Of a DNA stretch of 64,000 nucleotides, positions 2,572 to 27,369 are shown piece by piece. The notes under the pieces were generated by a model. The model was given only the letters and a program-made list of their open reading frames with translations, had not been told where the DNA came from and did no database searches. Within the stretch, counting starts at the first letter, position 1. The number at the start of each line of letters is the position of its first letter. The position numbers and the translations under genes are program-made. This stretch comes from Escherichia coli (GTDB taxonomy: Bacteria > Pseudomonadota > Gammaproteobacteria > Enterobacterales > Enterobacteriaceae). The stretch lies in the NCBI RefSeq assembly GCF_013122565.1, contig NZ_CP053258.1; one strand, 5' to 3'.

Positions 2572-2623
2572 ATATAAATAATCGTTCTTGCGCAGTCATC
2601 TGCGCTATTCGGGGGAAATCAGC

Positions 2624-4123
2624 ATGGGTCTGATATCGAGTGTCGTAAAATCACTTTCTAAACTGTCGATGATTGGTCGCGCGCTGATGCTGCCAATTTC
2701 GCTTCTGCCTGCCGCCGGGTTGTTGCTGGCGTTCGGCGATAAATTCCACATGCCGTTGATGATGAATGCCGGCGGTATCATTTTTGATAACTTGCCGATG
2801 CTTTTTGCTATCGGTTCTGCCGTGGGACTGGCTTCAGAATCGGGTATTGCGGCGCTATCCGCAGCTGTATCCGTCTTTGTCACTAATATCACCATCGGTA
2901 CTGTCCTTGGCATCACACCAGAGATGGCCGGGCAAGGCGGTAAATATGCGATGGTGGTGGGGATCCCAACGCTGCAAATGGGCGTCTTCGGCGGCCTGAT
3001 ATGCGGGGTTCTGGCGGCGTGGTGTTACAACCGTTTTCATACCATGCAATTACCAGAATTCCTTGGCTTTTTCTCCGGCAAACGCTTCGTGGCTATCGCG
3101 ACGGCTTTTCTTTCCTTCATCCTTGGCTTGTTACTGCCCTATGTCTGGCAACATATTCAGTCGGGAATCGATGCCCTATCAGTTATCGTCAATGGTGATA
3201 ACCAGGCGGCATCGACCTTTATTTTTGGTGTGACAGAACGTGCGCTCATTCCGCTTGGCCTGCACCACATCTGGTATCCATCGTTCTGGTACTCTTTTGG
3301 TGATTACACCACCCAGGCAGGCCAAATGATCCACGGTGACCAAACAATTTGGTTCAAAATGCTGGAAGAAGGTGTGAAATCGTTCAGTAGCGACAGCTAC
3401 CATAACGCGGGTAAGTTTTTACAGGGCGAGTTCCCGCTCATGCTGTTCGCGCTGCCTGCGGCGTGTCTGGCGATGTACCATGAAGCACACACCAAAAATA
3501 AGAAAATTGCCGCCGGTATTCTGTTCTCTGCCGCATTAACCTGTTTCCTGACAGGTATTACAGAACCCGTTGAATTTACCTTTATTTTCGTGGCACCGGT
3601 ACTGTACGTATTCAACGCGATAATGGCTGGCCTCTCCTATATGGCGATGTATCTGCTCCATGCCCATATTGCAAAATCCTTCTCGGCAGGGCTTATCGAT
3701 TATATTTCGTTTGGCATCCTGCCATCATTTAACGGCTACGAAACCAACTTCCTGAGTGCCATTATTGTTGGCGTACCGATGGCGATTATCTATTACTTCA
3801 CTTTCCGCTTTGTTATTCGCCGTTTTGATGTGAAAACACCGGGTCGAGCCGAAAGCACCGTATCCGCTAACGATAAAACCGATGATGAACTGGCTACGGA
3901 AATTATCAGTCTGCTGGGCGGCCAACAAAATATCTCTTCCGTCGCATCCTGCATAACACGCCTGCGTCTGGAAGTGGCAGATAAGGATGTAGTTGATAAA
4001 GATGGACTGAACAATGTCGGTGCTCGTGGTGTGGTTTTTGTCGGCGATAACGGCATTCAGGTGATTTTTGGCGCACGTGCACAATTTATCGCGCAAACCA
4101 TGTCGACGATGATTGGCAAATAG
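2624..4123 (+). CDS. PTS glucose/maltose-family EIICB component
   Basis: Polytopic membrane N-terminal domain plus C-terminal EIIB with CITRLR phospho-cysteine motif; start placed at ATG 2624 after GGGGGA RBS (track ORF begins at TTG 2588). Confidence 0.8.
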   Translation: MGLISSVVKSLSKLSMIGRALMLPISLLPAAGLLLAFGDKFHMPLMMNAGGIIFDNLPMLFAIGSAVGLASESGIAALSAAVSVFVTNITIGTVLGITPEMAGQGGKYAMVVGIPTLQMGVFGGLICGVLAAWCYNRFHTMQLPEFLGFFSGKRFVAIATAFLSFILGLLLPYVWQHIQSGIDALSVIVNGDNQAASTFIFGVTERALIPLGLHHIWYPSFWYSFGDYTTQAGQMIHGDQTIWFKMLEEGVKSFSSDSYHNAGKFLQGEFPLMLFALPAACLAMYHEAHTKNKKIAAGILFSAALTCFLTGITEPVEFTFIFVAPVLYVFNAIMAGLSYMAMYLLHAHIAKSFSAGLIDYISFGILPSFNGYETNFLSAIIVGVPMAIIYYFTFRFVIRRFDVKTPGRAESTVSANDKTDDELATEIISLLGGQQNISSVASCITRLRLEVADKDVVDKDGLNNVGARGVVFVGDNGIQVIFGARAQFIAQTMSTMIGK

Positions 4124-4190
4124 TCATAAGATTACGCTTTGTTGGAGGTTCTGGTCCCTGACTGGAACCTTCGTACTTATTGTTCAGGGA

Positions 4191-5213
4191 GTGAAGTTGA
4201 AGAAAGTCAGCATAATTGATGTTGCCAAAAGCGCAGGAGTCTCGGTCTCTACTGTGTCGCTGGTCCTGCGCCAGAAAGGCAAAATTTCCGAGGCAACCAT
4301 CGAGAAAGTTCATGCTGCCATTACTGAGCTTGGCTACGTGCATAATGTTGCCGCCGCCAATTTACGCTCCAACACTTCAAATCTTATCGGTCTGATTTTA
4401 CGTGATTTTAGCGATAGCTTTTCCATCAAAGTGATGGCAAGTATTGTTCAGGAACTGGAAGCACAAGGATATATGGTTTTCCTCGGGCAACCACAGAACG
4501 AGCATGAACATCTTGAACGCTGTTTGCTTTCCTTCAAGCAACAAGGTGTTGCCGGAGTGATTTATCTGGCTTCCGATGCGCAGCGTGAAACCTTACCCGC
4601 GCTGATTCGCCAGTGCCCTCTTCCTCTTGTCGTCGCCTCACAATCCCCCATCAAAGATGAATGCAATCTGGTATTGCGCGACAACCAGCAGGCGGCAAGC
4701 CTTGCCACGCGTTATTTAATTGAGCGTGGACATCGTTACATTGCCTACCTCGGCGGCAGAGAAAGCGATCTTATCCGCCAACAGCGACTGGTGGGTTTTC
4801 GCCAGACCCTGGCAAAATTCGGTATTGCCAGTCGTGACGAGTTCACGCCAGCCTGTGACGATGATACATACGCCGCCAGCATGGCCACGCGCCAGTTGCT
4901 GGAGAATAACAATGCCATCACCGCCCTACTCTGCCATTCGCCCGAGGCCATGATTGGCGGTATCAACGGCATACATCAGGTGGGGCGCACCGTCGGGAGA
5001 GACATCTTTCTGACCCAGCAGGTGGCGCTAATTGGTTTTGAAGATATGCTGCACATCAATCTGACCTCGCCCGTTTTCACCTATGTCTCTTCCGCCAGTG
5101 AAGAAACCGGACGCCAGGCTGCTAATCTAATAATCCGCAAGTTAAAAGACCCGGAGCTGCAAATTCAAAGAATTGCGCTTTCCGGGCAACTGGTAGTGCG
5201 GGAATCGGCGTAA
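4191..5213 (+). CDS. LacI-family transcriptional regulator
   Basis: N-terminal HTH KKVSIIDVAKSAGVSVSTVSLVL followed by periplasmic-binding-protein-like sugar-binding fold; start at GTG 4191 or TTG 4197 is uncertain. Confidence 0.8.
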   Translation: MKLKKVSIIDVAKSAGVSVSTVSLVLRQKGKISEATIEKVHAAITELGYVHNVAAANLRSNTSNLIGLILRDFSDSFSIKVMASIVQELEAQGYMVFLGQPQNEHEHLERCLLSFKQQGVAGVIYLASDAQRETLPALIRQCPLPLVVASQSPIKDECNLVLRDNQQAASLATRYLIERGHRYIAYLGGRESDLIRQQRLVGFRQTLAKFGIASRDEFTPACDDDTYAASMATRQLLENNNAITALLCHSPEAMIGGINGIHQVGRTVGRDIFLTQQVALIGFEDMLHINLTSPVFTYVSSASEETGRQAANLIIRKLKDPELQIQRIALSGQLVVRESA

Positions 5214-5336
5214 TTATTTCTGCCAGTCTCCGTCTTTAGCCGGCGGTCATCGCCACAACTGCACTGATGGATATGGTATTCTTTCGAGTATCTTTGCGGG
5301 CACTAACGCCAGGAGTATCGCCATGAGAATGGCGCG

Positions 5337-6818
5337 ATGAACACAGGGAATTTCGAGTCGATACAAATCATACTCGACGCGCAAGAGTGGCGTAGCCTGC
5401 CGCTGCATCTGCGTCTGTATCACGCTTTTCGCCAATTGGTGATTTCCGGCGCGTTGTCTGATGGCGCAAAGCTGCCGTCCGCTCGCGCACTGGCCCAGCA
5501 ACTTGGTCTTTCCAGAGATACCGTCGAAAATGCCTATTCCCAGCTTCAGCGCGACGGTTTTATGACCCGCAGGCAGGGAGCCGGGAGTTTCGCCAGCCGC
5601 CAGGGGATCCCGCAAATTCAGGGGCAGCACGCTCAGCCCCCCTCGCCCGGACAAGCACCGGCATTAACCGCCCGCTGGCAGCCGATTGCCGATCGCGCCG
5701 TCTCTTTCGATGCCCGCCAGATGCAGACCTTTACGCTTGGCCTGCCGGAAACGCGAAACTTCCCGCTAAACATTTGGCAGAACTTTTCCCGCCAGATCCA
5801 ACGTGAGCAGGCGCATACGCTGATGTTAAATAGCGATCCGCAGGGCGAGCCGGAGCTGCGCCAGCAAATTGCGCATTACCTTAATTTTGAACGCGGCGCG
5901 AAGGTAGATGCAGAGCAGATTGTGATTGTCAGCGGCGCACGGCAGGCGTTCTGGCTGTGCGGGCAACTGCTGGCAGAGGCCGGGCAATCAGTGGCGATGG
6001 AAAATCCAGGCTATCCCGGCGCGCGTCAGGCGTTTTCTGCCGCACAGCTTAATCTTCTTCCCGTTGAAGTGGATGACGCCGGGATCCGGGTGGATAAACT
6101 GCCGCCCGCACCGCTGGTTTACGTCACGCCGTCGCACCAGTTTCCTTCTGGTCATTTGCTCACGCTGGCGCGCCGTCACGCCCTGATTGCCTGGGCACAG
6201 GCGCACAATGCGTGGATTATTGAAGACGACTACGACAGCGAATTTCACTACACCAGCGCGCCCGTCGCCTGTCTGCAAGGGTTAGACTGCGAGCAACGCA
6301 CCCTGTATGTCGGCACTTTCAGCAAAACGCTCTATCCTGGTTTGCGCATTGGTTATCTGGTGGTGCCTGCCTCGCTGGCTGCGCACTTTGCCGCCGCACG
6401 TAATTTGCTTGATGGCGCAACGCCTGCGTTATCCCAACTGACGCTGGCGCGATTTATCGAGTCCGGTCATTTTGCCGCCCATATTCGCACCATGCGCAAT
6501 ATGTACGCGGTGCGACAGGCGAGCCTTGCAGAGGCTATTCATCAGCACTTAAGTGAATGGGTCACGCCAGTGGTGACATCCGGTGGATTACAAATGCCCT
6601 GCTGGCTGCATGAAGATGTTGATGAGCAACAGACGCTGAACGCGGCGCGCCGCGCCGGGTTAAATATCGCCGGGATGCGCCAGTTCTGGCTGACGCACCC
6701 CGCGCCCGCGGGCTGGCTGCTGGGATTCGCCGCCTTTACCCCCTACGAAATTGAGCAGGGAGTCAAGCGTCTGCGGGCTGCATTATGCGCTGAAAACGTG
6801 CGCCCAGCCGGGTCATAA
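5337..6818 (+). CDS. MocR/GntR-family regulator with PLP-dependent aminotransferase-like domain
   Basis: 493 aa; N-terminal GntR-type HTH (LPSARALAQQLGLSRDTVENAYSQL) plus large C-terminal aminotransferase-fold domain. Confidence 0.75.
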   Translation: MNTGNFESIQIILDAQEWRSLPLHLRLYHAFRQLVISGALSDGAKLPSARALAQQLGLSRDTVENAYSQLQRDGFMTRRQGAGSFASRQGIPQIQGQHAQPPSPGQAPALTARWQPIADRAVSFDARQMQTFTLGLPETRNFPLNIWQNFSRQIQREQAHTLMLNSDPQGEPELRQQIAHYLNFERGAKVDAEQIVIVSGARQAFWLCGQLLAEAGQSVAMENPGYPGARQAFSAAQLNLLPVEVDDAGIRVDKLPPAPLVYVTPSHQFPSGHLLTLARRHALIAWAQAHNAWIIEDDYDSEFHYTSAPVACLQGLDCEQRTLYVGTFSKTLYPGLRIGYLVVPASLAAHFAAARNLLDGATPALSQLTLARFIESGHFAAHIRTMRNMYAVRQASLAEAIHQHLSEWVTPVVTSGGLQMPCWLHEDVDEQQTLNAARRAGLNIAGMRQFWLTHPAPAGWLLGFAAFTPYEIEQGVKRLRAALCAENVRPAGS

Positions 6819-7869
6819 TCTCATACGGGATGGTGTCGCAGGCAGCCGCAACCTCTTCCAGCGTCTGGCCTGTGCCAATAAACTCCACCTTATCGCCCGC
6901 CGTCGGCGTGACGGCGCTGGCATCGACCATAAAGCTGTCCATACACACCCGCCCCAACACCGGTAACCGCACCCCGCGCCAGCATACGCCCGCCGGAGGA
7001 CGCATATTTCGCGGAACGCCATCCGCGTAACCCGCGGATATCGTGGCGATACGCAGCGGACGCGTGGCGGTAACCGTGCTGCCGTAGCCAACTGGCGTTC
7101 CGGCCGGAACATCCTGCACGCGCAGTATGGTCAGCGTCAGCGTAAAGACCGGTTTTAACGGCCTGGAAAACCACGGCTGGGTGACGCCAAACAGCGCAAT
7201 CCCCGGACGGCAGAGATCTTCCCGCCAGCCCGAGTGCAAAAACATCCCGCAGGAGTTCGCCAGCGAAAATCGGCTGCTGGGGAAAACCGTTTTTGCCTGC
7301 TGAAGTCGCGCGTGTTGCGCCATATTTAACGCATGATCCGGCCTGTCGGCGTTCGCCAGATGGCTGATGATATAATCCGGCGCAGGCCAGTTACGCTCAC
7401 GAAAAATCGCCGCCAGACGCATCAGTTGTTGCGACATCACGCCCAGCCGCGACATCCCGGAATCGAGCTGAATCATCACCGCACGCCGCTGCTGGCGCGT
7501 TTCCAGTAACGTAAGCCACGCCATCACCTGGTCTACGGAATTGAGCAATGGCGTGATCTGCTGCGCGTAACAAAATGCCATCGCCTCCGGCATAACCCCA
7601 TTAAGCACCACCACCCGCGCATCAGCGGGCAAGCATTTACGCAGCGCCACACCTTCAGAAAGCTGCGCGACAAAAAAGATCCGGCAGTTCGCCGCATACA
7701 GGGCGGGAGCAATCGCCTCCGCCCCCAGACCATAGGCATTCGCCTTCAACACCGCGCCACATTGCGCACGGGCAGCATGGCGGGCCAGGGTGCGATAATT
7801 TTCGACAATGGCGGCGAGATTGACGCACATAACGCCGCACGCCGCCTGAATTTCAGCAAGAGTTATCAT
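6763..7869 (-). CDS. alanine racemase-family (fold-type III PLP) enzyme
   Basis: 368 aa; [11 protein letters not shown]-lysine motif typical of Alr; ATG overlaps stop of upstream GlyA-like ORF (ATGA). Confidence 0.75.
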
Positions 7870-8981
7870 TGATAAGGCAACGGATAGCGGTTGGTTAGTT
7901 GTATTACTTTTTGCTCAATATCGGCGCAAATGTCTGCAATATCTGACGCGTTAATGGCCAGAATGATTTCACTTATCCAGTCAGCAATAAGCGCAAAGTC
8001 ATCCGCCTGCATCCCACGCGTGGTGCAGGCCGCGCTGCCAATACGAACGCCGGAGGTAATCGACGGCGGCTGCGGATCGCCCGGCAGGGTGTTTTTATTA
8101 ACCGTGATCCCCGCCAGTTCGAGAAAATACTCTACCTGTGCGCCGGTTAACCCCTGCGGGCGCAGGTCGATAATCCCCAGATGGCAATCGGTGCCGCCCG
8201 TTAACAGCGTCAGACCGCGCTGCGCCAGTTGCTGGCACATCGCCTGCGCATTGTCGATGACCTGCCCGGCATAACGTTTAAATTCCGGTTGTAATGCCTC
8301 GCCAAGCGCCACCGCTTTCGCCGCGATAACGTGCATCAACGGCCCGCCCTGCAAACCGGGAAAGATGGCGCTGTCGATTTTTTTCGCAAGCCGGGCGTCG
8401 TTGGTGAGGATCATGCCGCCGCGCGGCCCGCGCAACGTTTTATGCGTGGTGGTGGTGACCACATCAGCATACGCCAGCGGCGAAGGGAAACAGCCGCCCG
8501 CCACCAGCCCGGCAAAGTGCGCCATATCCACCAGCAAAATGGCGCCCACGGCATCGGCAATGCGGCGAAAACGGGCAAAATCATAGCGGCGTGGATAAGC
8601 CGATCCTCCGGCAATAATCAACCGTGGGCGCTCACGCAGCGCGATCATCTCGACTTCATCCATATCAATCAGGCCACTATGGGCATCGACGCCATAGTGA
8701 AAAGCGTTAAACCATTTGCCAGATTGATTGACCGGCGAACCGTGCGTGAGATGCCCGCCGCATTGCAGGCTCATGCCAAGAATTTTGTCGCCGGGTTTCA
8801 GCAACGCCAGATAGACCGCCTGATTCGCCTGGCTGCCGGAGTGAGGCTGCACATTGACGTAACGTGCGCCAAAGAGTTGCTGGGCGCGGGTTATCGCCAG
8901 CATCTCAACCTCATCAATAAACTTACAGCCGCCGTAGTAGCGATGCTGGTAATAACCTTCGGCGTATTTATTGGTTAACAC
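7866..8981 (-). CDS. serine hydroxymethyltransferase (GlyA) paralog; N-terminus interrupted by in-frame TAG (possible pseudogene, intact frame would start at ATG 9104)
   Basis: ORF aligns to SHMT from LTNKYAEGY onward ([21 protein letters not shown] motifs). Upstream in-frame codons read [43 protein letters not shown], still SHMT-like. Confidence 0.65.
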
Positions 8982-9337
8982 CGACCCCTGCGCCGCGAGA
9001 ACAGCGGGGCTTACGAAATTCTCCGAGGCAATCAGTTCCAGCGACTACTGCTGGCGCTGTTGCTCCTGGTTAATCAATGCAAAAAGTGGATCGTTATTTA
9101 TCATGCGCTTCCCCCGAAAATTCATCATGCGATGATTTTCGCAGGGAAAACGTCGCCCGCACCCTGCCACTTTTTAGAATGAGCGCAGACCACCTATGTC
9201 GTTTTACTTAAAAGAAGAGGGAAGAAGGCTCCAGGCATCTCCATATGCGATTCTGGTTGGTAATACATCATATTCCAGCTGCTCTTATCTGCCTACGTTA
9301 TTGCATAGGCAGAATAAGGCAGCCTCAATACGTACTT

Positions 9338-10891
9338 TTACTTGATATATTTCACGCGCATACCGTTGATCTGTTCATCCGTGATGGTGTTACCCGCTTT
9401 GAAGTAATCAACCACGGCGTGATAAACGTAATAACCGCCCGTTGTGTTACGCGCTTTCCCTTCGGTAAAGGCGGTAAAACCATCTCCACCATCAGCAAGG
9501 AAACTCTGGGTGGCAATAGAATAAACTGTCGCATCTTCAATGGGTTTGCCATTCAGAGTCAGTGTGATTACCCGCTGACCAACCGGCTTGCTGCTGTCGT
9601 ACTTCATTTCCAGGCCTTTCGATACCTGTAAAACGCCATTACTTAAACTTGCGCCGTGTTCCATCAAACTGCGTAATTGTTTCCCTGTGAGATCCATCGT
9701 CACCAGTTCGTTGGGGAACGGGAAGGTACTGATGACGCCGCCCATCGTAATCGCCCCTGCGGGGATCTCATTGCGAATACCGCCAGAGTTGGTTAAGGCT
9801 ATTTGGGTGTTTTTACCCGCCGCTACCAGTAAAGCGTCAGCCGCCAGGTTCCCGAGGGAAGCCGATTCACCATAGGCACGTTTTAATTCAACCGGCGATT
9901 GCGCCACCGTTTGTTGCACCACTTCATCAAGCTTTTTATTCCAGCCGTCGATCACCTGTTTTGTTTGCGGATCGGGCTTCCACTCGTCGGCGTAAATGGT
10001 TTTCAGCTCGAAGTTTTTCACCGTAAAATCATGCGGCTTCTCTTTGTAGTCGAGGACCAGTTTGCCCACATCAATCCCGCCGCTGTCAGTGGAGAGGATG
10101 AGCGTATTGCCGACTTTAATCGGTTCCGGCGTACCCACATGTGCATGTCCGGTGATCAAAATATCCAGCCCTTTCACCTGACTTGCCGTCTGAATATCTT
10201 TATCCAGTGCGCGACGCACATCGGTCCCTCCCATACTGGACTGGCGGGCCGGAACACCTTCATGGATCAGGGCGACGGTCAAATCAACCTTGCCTTTAAG
10301 TTCATCGATATAACGTTGTAGCCATTTAATTTCATCGCGCGCTTCAATACCCACGCGCGTGGCAGCAGATACCGTATCGTTGAAAGCAAATACTCCGTGC
10401 AAACCTATAACGCCTATTTTCACGCCGTCTTTTTCGATGATGGTATATGGCTTATCCCAGAATGATTTACTGCTGTTCTGATAAAAAACATTGCCCTGCA
10501 CAATAGGGAATTTTGCCTGACTCAACTGTAATAATGTGTTGTCCCAGCCGTGGTCAAATTCATGGTTGCCTATCGTGACGGCATCAAACGGCATAGTATT
10601 CATAATATCGATAATAGCCTTACCTTTGGTCAGGCTGCTGATATATGGCCCGGTAAAATAATCACCCGCATCAAAAAACCATGTCGCTTTATTTTTTGCT
10701 TTTTCTTGCTTAACCAGCGTAGTGATATTTGCCCAGCCGCCAATATCCCGTTTACCGTCAGCGATCCACGGCACTTTATAAGGCTCGACATGCGCATGGA
10801 GGTCGTTGGTATAAATGATGGTGACATCTTTGGCGCAAGCCCAGAACGGCAATGTTAATGCGATACCCGCAGCAAGTATTTTAATTTTCAT
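9338..10891 (-). CDS. secreted bifunctional metallophosphatase/5'-nucleotidase (UshA-like)
   Basis: 517 aa; signal peptide [20 protein letters not shown]; calcineurin-like metallophosphatase motifs (GNHEFD, GHAH) and C-terminal 5'-nucleotidase domain. Confidence 0.8.
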
Positions 10892-11023
10892 AAATAGTCC
10901 CTTTCAGTGATTTAAAGGATTGCTACATTACGTTCTGAAAGAGTTATTTATGTGAGAGTAATCACATCCGCAGGGGATAGTTGCCGGACAAAATCAACGA
11001 CCTTGTGAAATCGTTGGTGATAT

Positions 11024-12154
11024 ATGTCAACTCTGTTTACGATTAATGCCTGCAAGTCGTTTGGTTGCCGTAATTTAGGGCAACCAACATCGACAGATTA
11101 CAGCTGGCCAGACTATCGACTGGGTTATCCGGCACTGCACTGTCGGGCATGTGGAAGTTACCCGCCGTTGTTTGACGAACAGCAATTTCGTGACTGGTTG
11201 TCAGTTCACTTATCTACTTTTGCAACTGAGAAAGGTCATTTCTGCCCGGTATGTTATGGCACAAAGACGATTTGTTATGGCCACAATCCACAGGGGTCGC
11301 AACGCATTCAATGTCGTAACTGCAAAAAAGTCTGGACACCTAAACAATATCAGAAAGAAATAACGCCTCCTGAAATAATCGAAACGGTTGCTCTTCTGGT
11401 GCCATTTCAGGGAGCCAGCAATGGGCAGAAACTGTATGTTTTAATCAGTTTTGATGCTCTTCGCGGTAATATTCTTCATCTTTCTACTAATTACACGCAG
11501 CATCAGGCTGGAGAAAGTCTGCATTATCGATACAGAGGAAATGCAGAACCAGAGTTACACGAGAGTAATATTGTACAACGCGTTGATATGCGCGAAGCAC
11601 AATTTCTACGCCGCAGTCAGTTTGATGAAATTCAGTATGGCAGCGCAGCGCTCAAACGCAATGCTAAAGGTATTATTCTGCGTCCGGTTATCACTGCACA
11701 CGGGCATTTCAGAGTACTGAATATTTTATTCCCTACAGTAAAAACACATGTAATTTCACACGAGTGTTTTTTAAGAGGTGCCATTATTACGGCATGGGCT
11801 GATCTGTTTCGCCAACAGCAAGGTGAAATTTGGTTTATTGAAGAGGAAATAGCTGACTATACCGATAATATGCCCTGGAGTTTTCAGGGAACAACATATC
11901 ACGGCTGGTGGAAAAATCAGTGGCAACTTTGGGGTCAGGGCAAAAATCGTAAAATGGTATGTGCATTAACAGGCGGAAATAACAGCAAAGCTGAAATGCT
12001 CTCTTTCGCAACCAGCAGACATTTTATCGACTGGCTACATAAACAAGCAGTATTTACTCACAGCACCCCGCTTTCCGCAGGGCGCGTTACGCAAATACTG
12101 CTTTCTCTGGCTCAGGATTACAACAACTGCGCCAGCCGGTTGATATCCGACTGA
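11024..12154 (+). CDS. hypothetical protein with InsA/IS1595-type zinc-ribbon motifs (transposase-like, likely domesticated or relic)
   Basis: 376 aa; paired CxxC motifs (HCRACG, CPVCYG...QCRNCKKVW) resembling transposase zinc ribbons; 3' end overlaps metL 3' end by 37 nt, so no room for a terminal inverted repeat. Confidence 0.5.
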   Translation: MSTLFTINACKSFGCRNLGQPTSTDYSWPDYRLGYPALHCRACGSYPPLFDEQQFRDWLSVHLSTFATEKGHFCPVCYGTKTICYGHNPQGSQRIQCRNCKKVWTPKQYQKEITPPEIIETVALLVPFQGASNGQKLYVLISFDALRGNILHLSTNYTQHQAGESLHYRYRGNAEPELHESNIVQRVDMREAQFLRRSQFDEIQYGSAALKRNAKGIILRPVITAHGHFRVLNILFPTVKTHVISHECFLRGAIITAWADLFRQQQGEIWFIEEEIADYTDNMPWSFQGTTYHGWWKNQWQLWGQGKNRKMVCALTGGNNSKAEMLSFATSRHFIDWLHKQAVFTHSTPLSAGRVTQILLSLAQDYNNCASRLISD

Positions 12155-14550
12155 ATCGCCCCGGCGGTGACATCGCGCCCTGCGCCTGGTCCGCGGATCA
12201 CCAGAGGGTTATCGCGATACCAGCGGCTTTCGATGGCAAAGACGTTATCGCACGGCAGCAGTGATGCCAGCGGATGATCTTCACGCACCGCTTCCACGCC
12301 CACACGCGCTTTGCCGTTGGCATCGAAACGCGCCACGTAGCGCAGCACCAGCCCCATTTCGCGGGCCGCTTCCAGCCGTTGCAACATCTGCTCGTTGAGT
12401 TCATCGCCGTTTTCAAAGAAATGGTCGATGCTACCGCCTTCGCAATGGGCAGGCACCAGCGATTCCACGCGCACCTGATCCGGTTCGATGTCGTAACCCG
12501 CTTCACGCGCCAGAATCACCAGCTTGCGCATTACGTCTTTGCCGGAGAGGTCGTCACGCGGATCAGGCTCGGTTAAGCCCTGCTGCCACGCCTGATCCAC
12601 CAGCTCGGTAAACGGCACGCTACCGTCGAATTGCAGGAACAGCCAGGAGAGCGTGCCGGAGAAGATCCCACTGATCGACAAAATAGTATCGCCGCTGTCG
12701 ATCAGATCGCGCACGGTGTGGTTGATCGGCAAGCCCGCGCCGACGGTAGCGTTGTACAGCCAGTGACGCCCGGTTTTTTCGAAGGCGTCGTGGATCTGGC
12801 GATATTTATTGCTGTCGCTGGCTCCTGCCAGTTTGTTGGCGCTAATGACGTGGAAACCGTGGCTGGCGAAATCGAGATACTGGTCAGCAAGCTGCTGGCT
12901 GGCGGTAACGTCCAGCACCACTAAATCATCATACGGATGGGCGCGCATCCACAGGAACAGCGACTCTTCATCCTGCTCAACCGCTTCATCGTTGAAGAAG
13001 GCTAACGCGCGGCTGGCGTCCAGCCCGTCATAACTCAACAGGCTGCGGCGGCTGTCCACCACGCCTGCCAGCACAAATTCAAAGCCGGTACGTGCCGAAA
13101 GCGTGCTCTGCTCACGGGCGAACAGTTCCAGCCAGCGGGAACCGATATTGCCCTTGCCGAACAATACCAGGCCGATGCGTTTTTCCGCGCGGAAGACGGA
13201 CTGATGCAGCCCCTGAATCAGGCTTTCGGTCGGGCCGGTGCGCAGAACTGCCACCAGGCTGATGCCGTCATCGGACTGCCAGGTAAACTCGACCGGCTGG
13301 CCTTTCAGTTGCTGCCAGAAGCGGTGGCAATGCAGCGGGTTACGGGTGACACCCGCCCCGACCATCGCCACCAGCGCCAACCCCTGACGCAGGCGCAGCT
13401 CGCCAGGTAATCCCGCTTCGTCTAGGATTTTCAGCGCACTGTCGGCCACTTCTGAGGTGTAGCAAAATTGCAGCAACTGGCGATCGTTATGCACGCCAAC
13501 CGCCAGTGGGCGCACCTGCGCGCGTTTCAGGATCTGGTCGATCTCTTTATGCGCCAGTTTGAAATCCTGGCTGGCGGGCACCTGAAACTCAATCAAGCAG
13601 ACATCGTCGTGGCTGGTGACAATACGCGCACCAGTACCGGAGGCCAGCACGCGTTCAATGCGCGTGGAACCTTGATCCGGCGTGTAGCTACAGCGCAGTT
13701 GCAGGTCAATTTCGCTGCCTGATACCGGCTGTAAAGTACGGGCGTGGAGAACCGGAGCCGCCAGACGCGCCAGTTCGCTGGCTTCATCCAGACGCAGCAA
13801 CGGCAACAGGCAGGCATCTTTCACTTTACGCGGGTCGGCACTGTATACCCCGGCGACGTCGCTCCAGATGGTTACACGAGAAACACCCGCCAGCGCACCG
13901 ATTTGTGTCGCGGAGTAGTCGGAACCGTTACGCCCCAGCAGCACCGTTTCACCGGCGTTGTTACGGCTGATAAACCCGGTCACCACCAGACGTTTACCCG
14001 GATGTTGTACCAGTAGCTGTTGCAGCAACGGGTAAGAAAGCCCTTCATCAACCTGCGGCTGCGCAGCGCGTTCAGCGCGTAAAAACTCGCGGGCATCAAG
14101 CCAGGCCGCTGGCAGCCCTTGTTGATTAAGTACCGCAGACATCAGGCGCGCCGACCACACTTCACCATGGCCCACCACTTCCGCATACACCGCATCGTTA
14201 ATACCGCTGTCGAGCAGCGCCGCCAGGCGCTCAAGATCGCTGACAAAAGCGCTAATGAGGCTATCGGCTTCTTCAGCGGGTAGCAGACCGCTAATCAGAT
14301 CGCACTGATAGCGACGCAGCGTTTGTTGAACCTGATGCGCAGAGAGACGATCGGTCTGGCTTAGTTTCAACCAGTTAATCAACTGGTTAGTGGTGCTACC
14401 AGCGGCGGAAACCACCATCATATCGTCAGGCTGAGAGTACTCCGCCATAATGCCCGCGACACGCAAATAACACTTCACATCAGCCAGACTACTGCCACCA
14501 AATTTATGCAGTTGACGACCTTTCGCCCCTGCCTGCGCAATCACACTCAT
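12118..14550 (-). CDS. metL: bifunctional aspartokinase II / homoserine dehydrogenase II
   Basis: 810-aa ORF MSVIAQAGAKGRQLHKFGGSSLADVKCYLRVAG... matches MetL full length. Confidence 0.95.
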   Translation of the reverse strand: MSVIAQAGAKGRQLHKFGGSSLADVKCYLRVAGIMAEYSQPDDMMVVSAAGSTTNQLINWLKLSQTDRLSAHQVQQTLRRYQCDLISGLLPAEEADSLISAFVSDLERLAALLDSGINDAVYAEVVGHGEVWSARLMSAVLNQQGLPAAWLDAREFLRAERAAQPQVDEGLSYPLLQQLLVQHPGKRLVVTGFISRNNAGETVLLGRNGSDYSATQIGALAGVSRVTIWSDVAGVYSADPRKVKDACLLPLLRLDEASELARLAAPVLHARTLQPVSGSEIDLQLRCSYTPDQGSTRIERVLASGTGARIVTSHDDVCLIEFQVPASQDFKLAHKEIDQILKRAQVRPLAVGVHNDRQLLQFCYTSEVADSALKILDEAGLPGELRLRQGLALVAMVGAGVTRNPLHCHRFWQQLKGQPVEFTWQSDDGISLVAVLRTGPTESLIQGLHQSVFRAEKRIGLVLFGKGNIGSRWLELFAREQSTLSARTGFEFVLAGVVDSRRSLLSYDGLDASRALAFFNDEAVEQDEESLFLWMRAHPYDDLVVLDVTASQQLADQYLDFASHGFHVISANKLAGASDSNKYRQIHDAFEKTGRHWLYNATVGAGLPINHTVRDLIDSGDTILSISGIFSGTLSWLFLQFDGSVPFTELVDQAWQQGLTEPDPRDDLSGKDVMRKLVILAREAGYDIEPDQVRVESLVPAHCEGGSIDHFFENGDELNEQMLQRLEAAREMGLVLRYVARFDANGKARVGVEAVREDHPLASLLPCDNVFAIESRWYRDNPLVIRGPGAGRDVTAGAIQSDINRLAQLL

Positions 14551-25054: not shown

Positions 25055-25540
25055 ATGAAATACGATACTTCCGAGCTTTGTGACATCTATCAAGAAGATG
25101 TTAACGTCGTGGAACCGCTGTTCTCCAACTTTGGCGGACGGGCGTCGTTTGGCGGACAAATAATCACGGTAAAATGTTTCGAGGACAACGGGTTGCTGTA
25201 CGATCTGCTCGAACAGAATGGCCGTGGTCGTGTTCTTGTCGTCGATGGCGGTGGTTCTGTTCGTCGCGCACTGGTCGATGCTGAACTGGCGAGTCTGGCA
25301 GTACAAAATGAATGGGAAGGTCTGGTCATTTACGGCGCGGTGCGTCAGGTAGATGACCTGGAAGAGCTGGATATCGGCATCCAGGCGATGGCGGCAATTC
25401 CGGTTGGTGCCGCTGGCGAAGGCATTGGCGAAAGCGATGTCCGCGTCAATTTTGGCGGTGTTACCTTCTTCTCCGGCGACCATCTTTATGCCGACAATAC
25501 CGGGATTATTCTTTCAGAAGATCCGCTGGATATTGAATAA
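25055..25540 (+). CDS. rraA: RNase E inhibitor RraA
   Basis: 161 aa [46 protein letters not shown]... Confidence 0.95.
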
Positions 25541-25557
25541 GTATCTGCCATGCGTTA

Positions 25558-25584
25558 AAAGGGGAATTAAATTCCCCTTTTTTA
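25558..25584 (+). terminator. rho-independent terminator after rraA
   Basis: GGGGAAT-TAA-ATTCCCC hairpin followed by TTTTTT. Confidence 0.75.
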
Positions 25585-25587
25585 TAC

Positions 25588-26274
25588 ATGGACGTATTCA
25601 TGCAGAATATTATTCTTTTATTTATATATTTATCACTTATAGTCGTTAACCATTTCCGCTACAAATTTCTTTTATCTGGCAACGCGGGTGAAATGATTTT
25701 ATATTTTGCTAACGTATTTTTTAACCCACTTGCCGTATCATTTATTATCGCCACAATCATCTGTATAACGATAAAAAAAAGAAGCAGCCGTAGCTTTATT
25801 CGCGGCACTTGTTGGTTAATGGGATTATTTCTTATCTATAGCAGCTATACGGTGTGGGAACGACACAGCACATGGGATTATACTTTCCCGGGGCCAGGTA
25901 TCACCGTCACGGTTCCGAGCAAACAGTGGGTTACCAATATAGTAGAACAAGGCCCCACCCTGGTGACTCGGGATGCCCATGCTATTTTAGCTATTGTTGC
26001 CTTCTCACAAAATGAACTCGGTGTGCATTCAATCGAGGAGCTTACCGCGACTCAAAACGGAACTGCAGAAATGCATATTTGTGATGTTCAGGGATTTACC
26101 TGTGTTTATCAGGAAGAACTGCAAACAATGAGTGATGGTAAAACAAGACATGCTATTTTCATGACTCTACTGGATAACACTAATTTGATACAACTGGTCG
26201 CAGCCATCGACCAAGATTATTTGGACGAATATCAAGAAGAAGTAATGAAAATGATGCTTTCTGCCCGTCAATGA
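25588..26274 (+). CDS. hypothetical membrane-anchored protein, paralog 1 of a tandem pair
   Basis: 228 aa, two N-terminal hydrophobic helices then ~150-aa soluble domain; AT-rich; alternative start ATG 25600; paralogous to the next ORF. Confidence 0.6.
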   Translation: MDVFMQNIILLFIYLSLIVVNHFRYKFLLSGNAGEMILYFANVFFNPLAVSFIIATIICITIKKRSSRSFIRGTCWLMGLFLIYSSYTVWERHSTWDYTFPGPGITVTVPSKQWVTNIVEQGPTLVTRDAHAILAIVAFSQNELGVHSIEELTATQNGTAEMHICDVQGFTCVYQEELQTMSDGKTRHAIFMTLLDNTNLIQLVAAIDQDYLDEYQEEVMKMMLSARQ

Positions 26275-26306
26275 TCTGATGTGCATATTAATAATAAGGG
26301 ATTGAT

Positions 26307-27023
26307 ATGAGATACGTTATCTTATTAATACTATGGTTAATAACTGCTTTTCTTAGTCATCTTCAGCACAGCAACCTACTATCTGGAGATCCTGGCATGG
26401 TTGGCGAGTATATCGGTTCAGTATTTCTGGGGCCGTTATTACTTCCCGTGCTTGTGTCAGGTATTCTGTGCGCATTCACTAAAAAAACGCGTAACTGCGC
26501 CAGTTTTACTCGCGGGTGCTGCTGGGTATTGGGAGTCCTGCTTTTATCCAACGTCGGCAATACGTTTCGTATGTTCACCCCGTGGCAATATACGTTTGAG
26601 AATGCCGCTATTTCCGTGACTGTCCCGAACCGACACTGGAATACGGTTTCCATTCGTACAGATAAAACCATTGATATAAGAAGTGAAGATAATAGCGTCT
26701 TTATTTCTGCTTTCCGCCTGCCCGCAGGACGTAGCGCCGATGACTCGCTGGAAGAGTTAAAGAAGATGCAGCGAGACAATCTCAAGGATCAATACAATGA
26801 AGAAACCTTCCAGTTTCATGATTGTCATGCCAAACATTTCACCTGTAAGTATCAGGATGTGTTGATAAATTTTGATGGTCAGCAGAAGAGAACCATCAGT
26901 GTTTATCTTGAAGACACCCCCAGAGCTGTGGGGATCATTGCATTAATGGAGCCAGATACGGTAGATAAATATCGCCAACAGGCGATGGAGATTATGTTGT
27001 CTGCTAAAAATGCAGTGAAGTAA
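26307..27023 (+). CDS. hypothetical membrane-anchored protein, paralog 2 of a tandem pair
   Basis: 238 aa; shares blocks with paralog 1 (LLSGxxG, RGxCWxxGxLL, IxVTVPxxxW, FTCxYQ, MLSA). Confidence 0.6.
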   Translation: MRYVILLILWLITAFLSHLQHSNLLSGDPGMVGEYIGSVFLGPLLLPVLVSGILCAFTKKTRNCASFTRGCCWVLGVLLLSNVGNTFRMFTPWQYTFENAAISVTVPNRHWNTVSIRTDKTIDIRSEDNSVFISAFRLPAGRSADDSLEELKKMQRDNLKDQYNEETFQFHDCHAKHFTCKYQDVLINFDGQQKRTISVYLEDTPRAVGIIALMEPDTVDKYRQQAMEIMLSAKNAVK

Positions 27024-27050
27024 AAATAAGGCGCCTTGCGGCGCCTCTGC
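27024..27050. terminator. hairpin between convergent paralog 2 and zapB (candidate bidirectional terminator)
   Basis: AGGCGCC-TTGC-GGCGCCT inverted repeat in the 37-nt convergent gap. Confidence 0.4.
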
Positions 27051-27060
27051 GTGGAAGAGA

Positions 27061-27369
<309 letters not shown>

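Follow-up and report, generated by a model that had tools for sequence, protein, structure and literature searches.

In a 64,000-nucleotide stretch of an Escherichia coli genome (contig NZ_CP053258.1, assembly GCF_013122565.1; hereafter the window), the genes rraA and zapB are separated by two open reading frames (ORFs), ORF1 and ORF2, which are real genes for two paralogous inner-membrane proteins. They represent an undescribed family whose new features are a three-helix anchor, tandem paralogs, and a fixed chromosomal slot; membrane-proximal periplasmic PsbP-like proteins are already known as a kind. The soluble domain of the pair belongs to the Mog1p/PsbP-like fold class, and the family lies outside the Pfam DcrB and PsbP families as defined. 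Both genes are functional but weakly constrained, and the simplest reading of their distribution is an ancient tandem pair that has been lost, partly or fully, many times.

Tandem paralogs between rraA and zapB

The window has the gene order hslVU, menA, rraA, ORF1, ORF2, zapB, glpF, and glpK, and the ORF list places two ORFs on the + strand (25588–26274 and 26307–27023) between rraA and zapB. The genes of the slot and its edges are:

25055–25540, + strand: rraA, the 5' neighbor (ORF list and annotation of syntenic E. coli loci)
25600–26274, + strand: ORF1, 224 aa from the ATG at 25600 (the longest ORF starts at 25588 and has 228 aa); ECs_4855 of O157:H7 Sakai
26307–27023, + strand: ORF2, 238 aa; ECs_4854 of O157:H7 Sakai
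27061–27306, − strand: zapB, the convergent 3' neighbor and right edge of the variable slot

ORF1 and ORF2 align over their full length (BLASTP, ~236 aligned columns) with 31% identity, 52% positives, and an E value of 5e-37. An earlier, sequence-only reading of this DNA had described a tandem pair of paralogous membrane-anchored proteins, richer in AT than its flanks and absent from K-12, and the data agree with it on each count. The motifs on which it relied (LLSGxxG, RGxCWxxGxLL, I(T/S)VTVP, FTCxYQ, and MLSA) are all found in the pair. GC content is 39.9% in ORF1, 43.8% in ORF2, and 41.8% in the whole block, compared with 51–54% in flanking genes and 51.3% in the window. In K-12 MG1655, the gap between rraA and zapB is 84 bp, and the indel relative to the window is bounded exactly by the two stop codons. 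The 224-aa protein of ORF1 is identical to WP_171460027.1, annotated as "hypothetical protein [Escherichia coli]".

Each protein has three predicted N-terminal helices, located in ORF2 at residues 2–25, 30–57, and 64–90, followed by a soluble domain of ~150 residues (residues 91–238 of ORF2; nt 26577–27020). Two N-terminal hydrophobic helices had been counted previously; the RGxCWxxGxLL block is the start of the third, and the count sets the topology. In the 21 relatives compared, mean charges are +4.1/−0.1 for the loop that joins helices 2 and 3 and +0.5/−1.3 for the first loop. Because the loop between helices 2 and 3 is basic, the positive-inside rule predicts that it and the N terminus are cytoplasmic and that the C-terminal domain faces the periplasm.

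A pair of cysteines is consistent with this location. In the structural model of ORF2, Cys173 (26823–26825) and Cys180 (26844–26846) lie across a beta-hairpin and face each other on its strands (E171–175/E178–189); the conserved pair of ORF1 is encoded at 26080–26082 and 26101–26103. The pair is kept in 20 of 21 relatives, and the domain has exactly two cysteines in 19 of the 21. As modeled, it would fit a disulfide made in the periplasm, probably one that stabilizes the domain. Conservation of the cysteine pair, a P107/W111 motif, and the basic loop extends across the family.

Fold and relatives of the soluble domain

The soluble domain, in which the sequence-only reading had recognized nothing familiar, has a Mog1p/PsbP/DUF1795-type fold (Foldseek). 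It is an alpha-beta-alpha sandwich with a central antiparallel sheet and superposes on solved Mog1p/PsbP-like members. In structure comparisons, it scores 13.9 against 3lyd, 12.3 against cyanobacterial PsbP, 12.1 against BT_1490, 11.5 against PA0094/EagT6, and ~11 against plant PsbP and PnsL. Scores are 10.6 for both LpqN and TplEi, 9.7 for Mog1, 9.6 for DcrB, 9.1 for SciW, and 9.0 for Tsi3.

A Foldseek search of AFDB50 returned two true homologs, A0A6N3FQV8 (Klebsiella oxytoca, 32% identity) and A0A5B0K846 (29%). Hundreds of further matches carry the names "DUF1795" or "PsbP C-terminal domain", and a subset of them have membrane domains at the N terminus. Among AFDB proteins, membrane-anchored PsbP/DUF1795 members such as Firmicutes RDD-family–PsbP fusions and the K. 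oxytoca protein, share with the pair an arrangement of N-terminal helices followed by a C-terminal PsbP-like domain. The fusions differ in being longer (330–400 aa), are 10–16% identical to the pair, and are uncharacterized; the pair has no RDD match in Pfam.

Searches at the sequence level were almost uniformly negative. Neither ORF1 nor ORF2 has a Pfam match at E values up to 10. The Pfam DcrB/DUF1795 family (PF08786) matches neither of them nor any of the 21 relatives, and PsbP (PF01789) matches one of the 21, weakly and short of significance (3.4e-3). Alignment of the 21-sequence profile to E. coli DcrB with hhalign gave a probability of 0.1%. A profile search against PDB sequences yielded just chance matches to transmembrane segments, and neither 6e8a nor 1tu1 was recovered. 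The pair likewise has no significant match in NCBIfam, matches 0 PADLOC families, and finds nothing in PHROGs better than an E value of 0.12. The description of the pair as uncharacterized therefore stands, borne out by these negative searches and by a literature without mention of it. The family is tiny: among 1.84 billion representative proteins, a profile search found just 31 relatives, counted as representatives at 50% identity, and a second, word-indexed search with a wider alignment found no additional relatives.

DcrB is the closest characterized analog in behavior, and 3lyd and PsbP are the closest structures. DcrB (PF08786, DUF1795; PDB 6e8a) is an inner-membrane lipoprotein of Salmonella and E. 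coli. It is anchored by an N-terminal lipid, whereas the pair is anchored by three transmembrane helices; no lipobox for a DcrB-type lipid anchor was found in either protein, and three hydrophobic helices precede the domain. Unlike DcrB, to which they have no relation at the sequence level, ORF1 and ORF2 are tandem paralogs with a conserved cysteine pair in a hairpin, and they are in a different locus (dcrB is elsewhere in K-12). PsbP/CyanoP and PsbP-like proteins (PF01789; 2xb3, 3jcu_P) differ from the pair, whose host is not photosynthetic; ORF1 and ORF2 have no significant match to the hidden Markov model of that family and have their own membrane anchor.

History of the slot and selection on its genes

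Across 5426 complete E. coli genomes, 679 have a match to the island, 4717 have a short, K-12-like gap between rraA and zapB, and ~30 have an enlarged gap (> ~800 bp) without a match to ORF2. Among the 679 matching genomes, 657 cover at least 80% of the block and 677 cover at least 80% of ORF2. Carriers include O157:H7, O55:H7, O145:H28, and O15:H18 sequence type 69 (ST69). The O157:H7, O55:H7, and O145 genomes among the matches listed all carry both genes, as do phylogroup D-type strains such as ST69.

The slot is also occupied outside of E. coli. Seven other enterobacterial contexts have flanks that could be read, and in all seven a family member is directly after rraA and/or beside zapB, in one or two copies; three further contexts were too short or uninformative. 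Gene rraA is immediately upstream of the family member in loci L014, L004–L007, L017, L032, and L034, and it accompanies the family wherever the upstream flank is readable. Both genes are in the slot of Escherichia sp. MOD1-EC7003, whereas E. albertii, E. whittamii, and one E. coli have only ORF2. In locus L014, from a related genus, counterparts of ORF1 (49% identity to that of the window) and ORF2 (39%) follow one another as they do in the window, between flanks (HslU, MenA, RraA, ZapB, GlpF, and GlpK) that are 93–97% identical. Kluyvera-type contigs have a single copy directly after rraA (32% identity), and Enterobacter-type contigs have one between rraA and zapB that is ~24% identical while both flanks are 91% identical. 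In Atlantibacter, the copy follows rraA and one extra gene and precedes zapB; in contigs L033 and L034, it is before zapB or after rraA. Identity within the family across contexts is thus 24–49%, while that of the flanks is 91–97%. A single distant relative with enough readable flank, from a metagenome-assembled genome, is located elsewhere. A peptide-pattern scan with a narrower alignment found Escherichia loci only.

Because the slot is occupied across genera, the state of K-12 is most likely one of loss and not ancestral. A decayed ORF1 start, found right after the terminator of rraA in ORF2-only loci and in L034, is consistent with partial loss. The ancestral state would have been an ORF1-like/ORF2-like pair; E. 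albertii and E. whittamii would have lost ORF1, and K-12 and ~87% of E. coli both genes. The family would accordingly be an occupant of the slot 3' of rraA in Enterobacteriaceae that is inherited vertically, evolves fast, and can be dispensed with.

The sequence-only reading had instead seen an insertion. On this view the block would be a recently acquired foreign island whose AT-richness reflects its origin, which we consider quite improbable. It would account for the GC content (42% versus 51–54% in flanks), for the absence from K-12 and 4717 of 5426 complete genomes, and for an indel that ends exactly at two stop codons, but not for other species and genera whose orthologs keep this order and diverge far more than the flanks, or for the remnant of ORF1 in ORF2-only genomes. 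None of the marks of a mobile genomic island was found. A repeat search identified no direct or inverted repeats flanking the island, and there is no mobility gene, integrase, or tRNA between rraA and zapB. The sole match in a plasmid collection is a 4.9-Mb, chromosome-sized record, and a phage collection has no match.

Relative to its best E. coli match, the island (25541–27060) is 97.4% identical (96.4% in O157:H7), and the adjacent 3.5 kb of core genes is 99.3% identical. Synonymous divergence from Sakai is 0.07–0.10 in the two ORFs and 0.009–0.06 in flanking genes. These values hint at older allelic lineages or recombination at the locus. In other genomes, the slot holds further sequences: repetitive extragenic palindromic (REP)-like sequences with a duplicated hairpin in E. 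coli SCPM-O-B-8794 (L012 5263–5477), a Y1 (RAYT/IS200-type) transposase gene (L014 7497–8395), an NlpA/Lipoprotein_9 gene in Atlantibacter (L032 2796–3614), esterase, major facilitator superfamily (MFS), and AraC genes in Kluyvera-type contigs (L004 1429–4572), and pfkA-fieF with a P2-like prophage (L034 4827–8720).

Ratios of nonsynonymous to synonymous divergence (dN/dS; Nei-Gojobori, window vs seven other loci) indicate significant but relaxed purifying selection on both genes. For ORF1, dN/dS is 0.36–0.77 within Escherichia and 0.23 relative to L014; for ORF2, it is 0.14–0.31. Values for hslU, menA, rraA, glpF, glpK, and zapB are 0.00–0.06, with an outlier of 0.32 in rraA that stems from a single substitution of each kind. 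In both ORFs dN is smaller than dS (Fisher p of 2.5e-3 to 5e-16), with significance missed only by the two closest pairs of ORF1. At this depth, the periplasmic domain showed no stronger diversifying selection than the helices, as pN/pS in ORF2 is 0.23 in the domain and 0.24 in the helices.

Intact copies of both ORFs occur in E. coli, Escherichia sp., and the related genus of L014, and frames remain open across genera despite 50–75% amino-acid divergence. The frequent disruption in related genomes that would have spoken against the earlier reading was not observed, and real disruptions are rare. They comprise IS5 in strain TCM3e1, an internal stop in an ORF2-only strain, a fusion with an insertion sequence (IS) in Shigella dysenteriae 1617, and an A7-to-A6 frameshift of ORF2 in one draft genome (L025), an allele absent from all 679 complete genomes. 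A further two "truncated" loci in databases are assembly artifacts, from assemblies with homopolymer errors in glpK or fragmented neighboring genes.

The possibility that the pair are functionless relics, decaying ORFs that persist by chance, is in our view very improbable. Elevated dN/dS (to 0.77 for ORF1 between close strains), the lack of a promoter of their own, the disruptions by IS5, an internal stop, and the IS of S. dysenteriae, and the loss from most E. coli are all compatible with decay. They are outweighed by significant purifying selection in both genes, by reading frames kept intact at such divergence, and by the family-wide conservation of the cysteine pair, P107/W111 motif, and basic loop; moreover, many "truncated" database entries are homopolymer assembly errors.

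Two homopolymers occur at an equivalent codon position in both paralogs:

25773–25780, + strand: A8 run, encoding Lys-Lys after helix 2 of ORF1; assemblies differ at the homopolymer
26481–26487, + strand: A7 run, encoding Lys-Lys after helix 2 of ORF2; A6 frameshift allele in one draft genome

Database variants at these runs include a −1 frameshift (L025) and a +3 variant with an extra Lys (P0005). Phase variation at the two runs was considered and dropped, given that none of the complete genomes has the A6 frameshift.

Elsewhere in the window, a ~10-kb block (2588–12154) is located between metF (1240–2130, − strand) and metL (12118–14550, − strand), which directly neighbor each other in O157:H7 Sakai. 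Encoded in the block are a glucose-type phosphotransferase system (PTS) IIBC protein, a MalI-like LacI-family regulator, a MocR/PdxR-like regulator, and alanine-racemase-like, serine-hydroxymethyltransferase-like, and UshA/5'-nucleotidase-like proteins, as well as a 376-aa ORF without an NCBIfam match.

Expression and candidate functions

The sequences that bear on expression of the pair are:

25557–25582, + strand: intrinsic terminator of rraA, consisting of an A-tract, a GGGGAAT/ATTCCCC hairpin, and a T6 run (terminator scan)
25590–25592, + strand: weak Shine-Dalgarno GGA, 7 nt 5' of the ATG at 25600; AAGGA in orthologous loci L014 and L017
26275–26306, + strand: ORF1–ORF2 spacer, 32 nt, with AAGGGA at 26296–26301, 5 nt 5' of the ORF2 start
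27028–27047, no strand assigned: GC-rich hairpin between the stops of ORF2 and zapB, with a T-run only on the − strand

The start of ORF1 is most likely the ATG at 25600 rather than that at 25588, because this codon aligns with Met1 of ORF2, is the annotated start in Sakai (ECs_4855) and in GF60 (there a GTG), is the sole start available in the ortholog of another genus, and has a GGA/AAGGA Shine-Dalgarno 7–8 nt upstream. The sequence-only reading had placed ORF1 within 2–14 nt of the T-run of the terminator; the terminator does directly precede ORF1, but the distance is 17 nt for the ATG at 25600 and 5 nt for that at 25588. RefSeq/PGAP and Sakai annotations put the start of ORF2 at Met31 (208 aa; window 26307–26396 upstream of it; L001 4857, L019 2482–3108). 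Such a start drops transmembrane helix 1, a feature that all species examined conserve, and the start is therefore corrected to 26307.

The terminator of rraA has a hairpin core at 25561–25576 and a T-run at 25577–25582, with a folding free energy of −13.2 kcal/mol. Its variant, GGGG(G)A(A)TT...AATTCCCC(C)-T6, is common to all island-bearing loci, and the hairpin of K-12 is different. The same hairpin is in E. albertii, E. whittamii, L012, L014, L034, L004, and L017, and the layout of terminator, Shine-Dalgarno, and ATG after rraA is kept across genera. A consensus scan from the rraA promoter region to ORF1 found no promoter-like (sigma-70-like) site, in line with the earlier remark that ORF1 has no obvious promoter of its own. 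Without one, transcription by read-through is probable, and rraA reportedly has its own sigma-S-dependent promoter. The terminator scan found none in the spacer between ORF1 and ORF2, and the two genes are therefore in an operon-like arrangement. The pair is thus probably a single two-gene unit that is co-transcribed with rraA, at a low level, when RNA polymerase reads through the conserved terminator of rraA. Since the hairpin at 27028–27047 has its T-run on the − strand only, it is the terminator of zapB and just a weak one for ORF2. Its stem and GCAA loop are almost those of the K-12 terminator of rraA (L002 4815–4840), in opposite orientation, and a simple deletion cannot convert the hairpin arrangement of the window into that of K-12. 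An Rfam scan of the region returned nothing near threshold.

We propose, with about an even chance of being right, that ORF1 and ORF2 are non-enzymatic, membrane-tethered periplasmic binding proteins expressed by read-through from rraA. Three transmembrane helices, with a basic cytoplasmic loop between the second and third, would anchor the domain at the inner membrane. There it would, without catalysis, bind another envelope protein or a lipid-linked molecule at the outer face of the membrane, by analogy with the same-fold bacterial proteins DcrB, LpqN, and Tli/Tsi, and the two paralogs may act as a hetero-oligomer. A statement in PMC7716261 (citing Rasmussen et al. 2018) describes DcrB and other bacterial members of the fold class as membrane-anchored periplasmic proteins of diverse functions.

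Several points weigh against this proposal. The relation to DcrB and PsbP is at the level of fold only, with negative results in Pfam, hhalign, and sequence searches of the PDB, and the fold is not specific for function, given that its members span photosystem subunits, chaperones, and immunity proteins. A terminator of −13 kcal/mol directly 5' of ORF1 could mean very little transcription. Divergence ~10–20 times that of the flanks, absence from 87% of E. coli, and occasional disruption by an IS or stop mark the pair as dispensable. We also found no mention of ECs_4854/4855 in the literature; the sole DUF1795 protein discussed in a survey of type VI secretion systems (T6SS) of enterohemorrhagic E. 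coli (EHEC) is the vgrG-linked EagR (PMC7216683).

The pair could alternatively be orphan immunity-type proteins, whose periplasmic domains neutralize toxins of competitors such as T6SS lipases and muramidases, with paralogs covering toxin variants. Tandem paralogs that vary in copy number from 0 to 1 or 2, very fast protein divergence at a fixed locus, patchy presence within the species (679 of 5426 genomes), and a predicted membrane-proximal periplasmic location suited to lipase immunity are what such a role would lead one to expect. Periplasmic T6SS immunity proteins of the same fold are indeed known (TplEi/Tli4, 5h7y; Tsi3, 4luq; PA3488/Tli5, 7wdk). But the pair differs from them in having no effector beside it in the window or in any context examined, where neighbors are rraA, zapB, glpF, or unrelated metabolic genes, and in having a three-helix anchor instead of a signal peptide or lipobox and a fixed position in the core genome. 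Nor does it match any immunity or defense family in sequence. Furthermore, dN/dS stays below 1 and does not rise from the helices to the periplasmic domain, generic PsbP-type structures outscore immunity proteins, and descent appears vertical rather than mobile. We regard the immunity reading as unlikely. The Eag chaperones of the fold class (DUF1795: EagT6/PA0094, 1tu1; SciW, 6xrb) are soluble proteins of the cytoplasm whose genes adjoin vgrG/Rhs effector genes (PMC7216683), whereas the pair has its domain fused to helices, with a predicted periplasmic location, and lacks neighbors of that kind.

DcrB is annotated in K-12 as a "periplasmic bacteriophage sensitivity protein", and sensitivity to certain phages depends on it. 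In fold and in membrane-proximal periplasmic location, the pair resembles DcrB, and the domains of the pair might either provide or mask an inner-membrane component that phages use for DNA entry or colicins for import, which would explain the rapid change and frequent loss seen in its fast divergence and patchy presence. This too is a decidedly improbable reading: all of the evidence is circumstantial, DcrB is unrelated in sequence, there is no PHROG or PADLOC match and no phage-borne copy, and the periplasmic domain lacks a signal of diversifying selection.

Within the proposed mechanism of membrane-tethered binding proteins, we slightly favor a DcrB-like accessory role in the envelope over an immunity-like role, because no toxin gene accompanies any homolog, descent looks vertical, and there is no diversifying selection specific to the domain. 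A broader version, which we hold to be possible but still rather unlikely, is that a family of inner-membrane proteins, diversifying rapidly and spread across the Enterobacteriaceae, would use its periplasmic PsbP-like domains as protective receptors that work alone, either as orphan immunity against periplasm- or membrane-acting toxins or as blockers of phage entry. Tandem paralogs would broaden specificity, and expression would come by read-through from a stationary-phase rraA transcript.

Both genes are in EHEC (O157:H7) and not in K-12, and laboratory work has consequently never touched them. They are annotated everywhere as hypothetical, often with a start of ORF2 that costs it the first membrane helix; what is gained here is their architecture, likely location, fold, and corrected gene starts. 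Nothing in these results contradicts current understanding. The pattern is nevertheless unusual, in that a position beside rraA is fixed across genera while the proteins diverge 10–20 times faster than their neighbors and are repeatedly lost, and it makes the pair a small candidate, open to testing, for a role in the envelope under changing selection. Should the protective, immunity-like reading prove wrong, the pair would be one more accessory member of the DcrB/PsbP-like periplasmic adaptors. If it is true, these would be defense genes in the core genome without a cognate weapon, an effector-independent locus of envelope defense.

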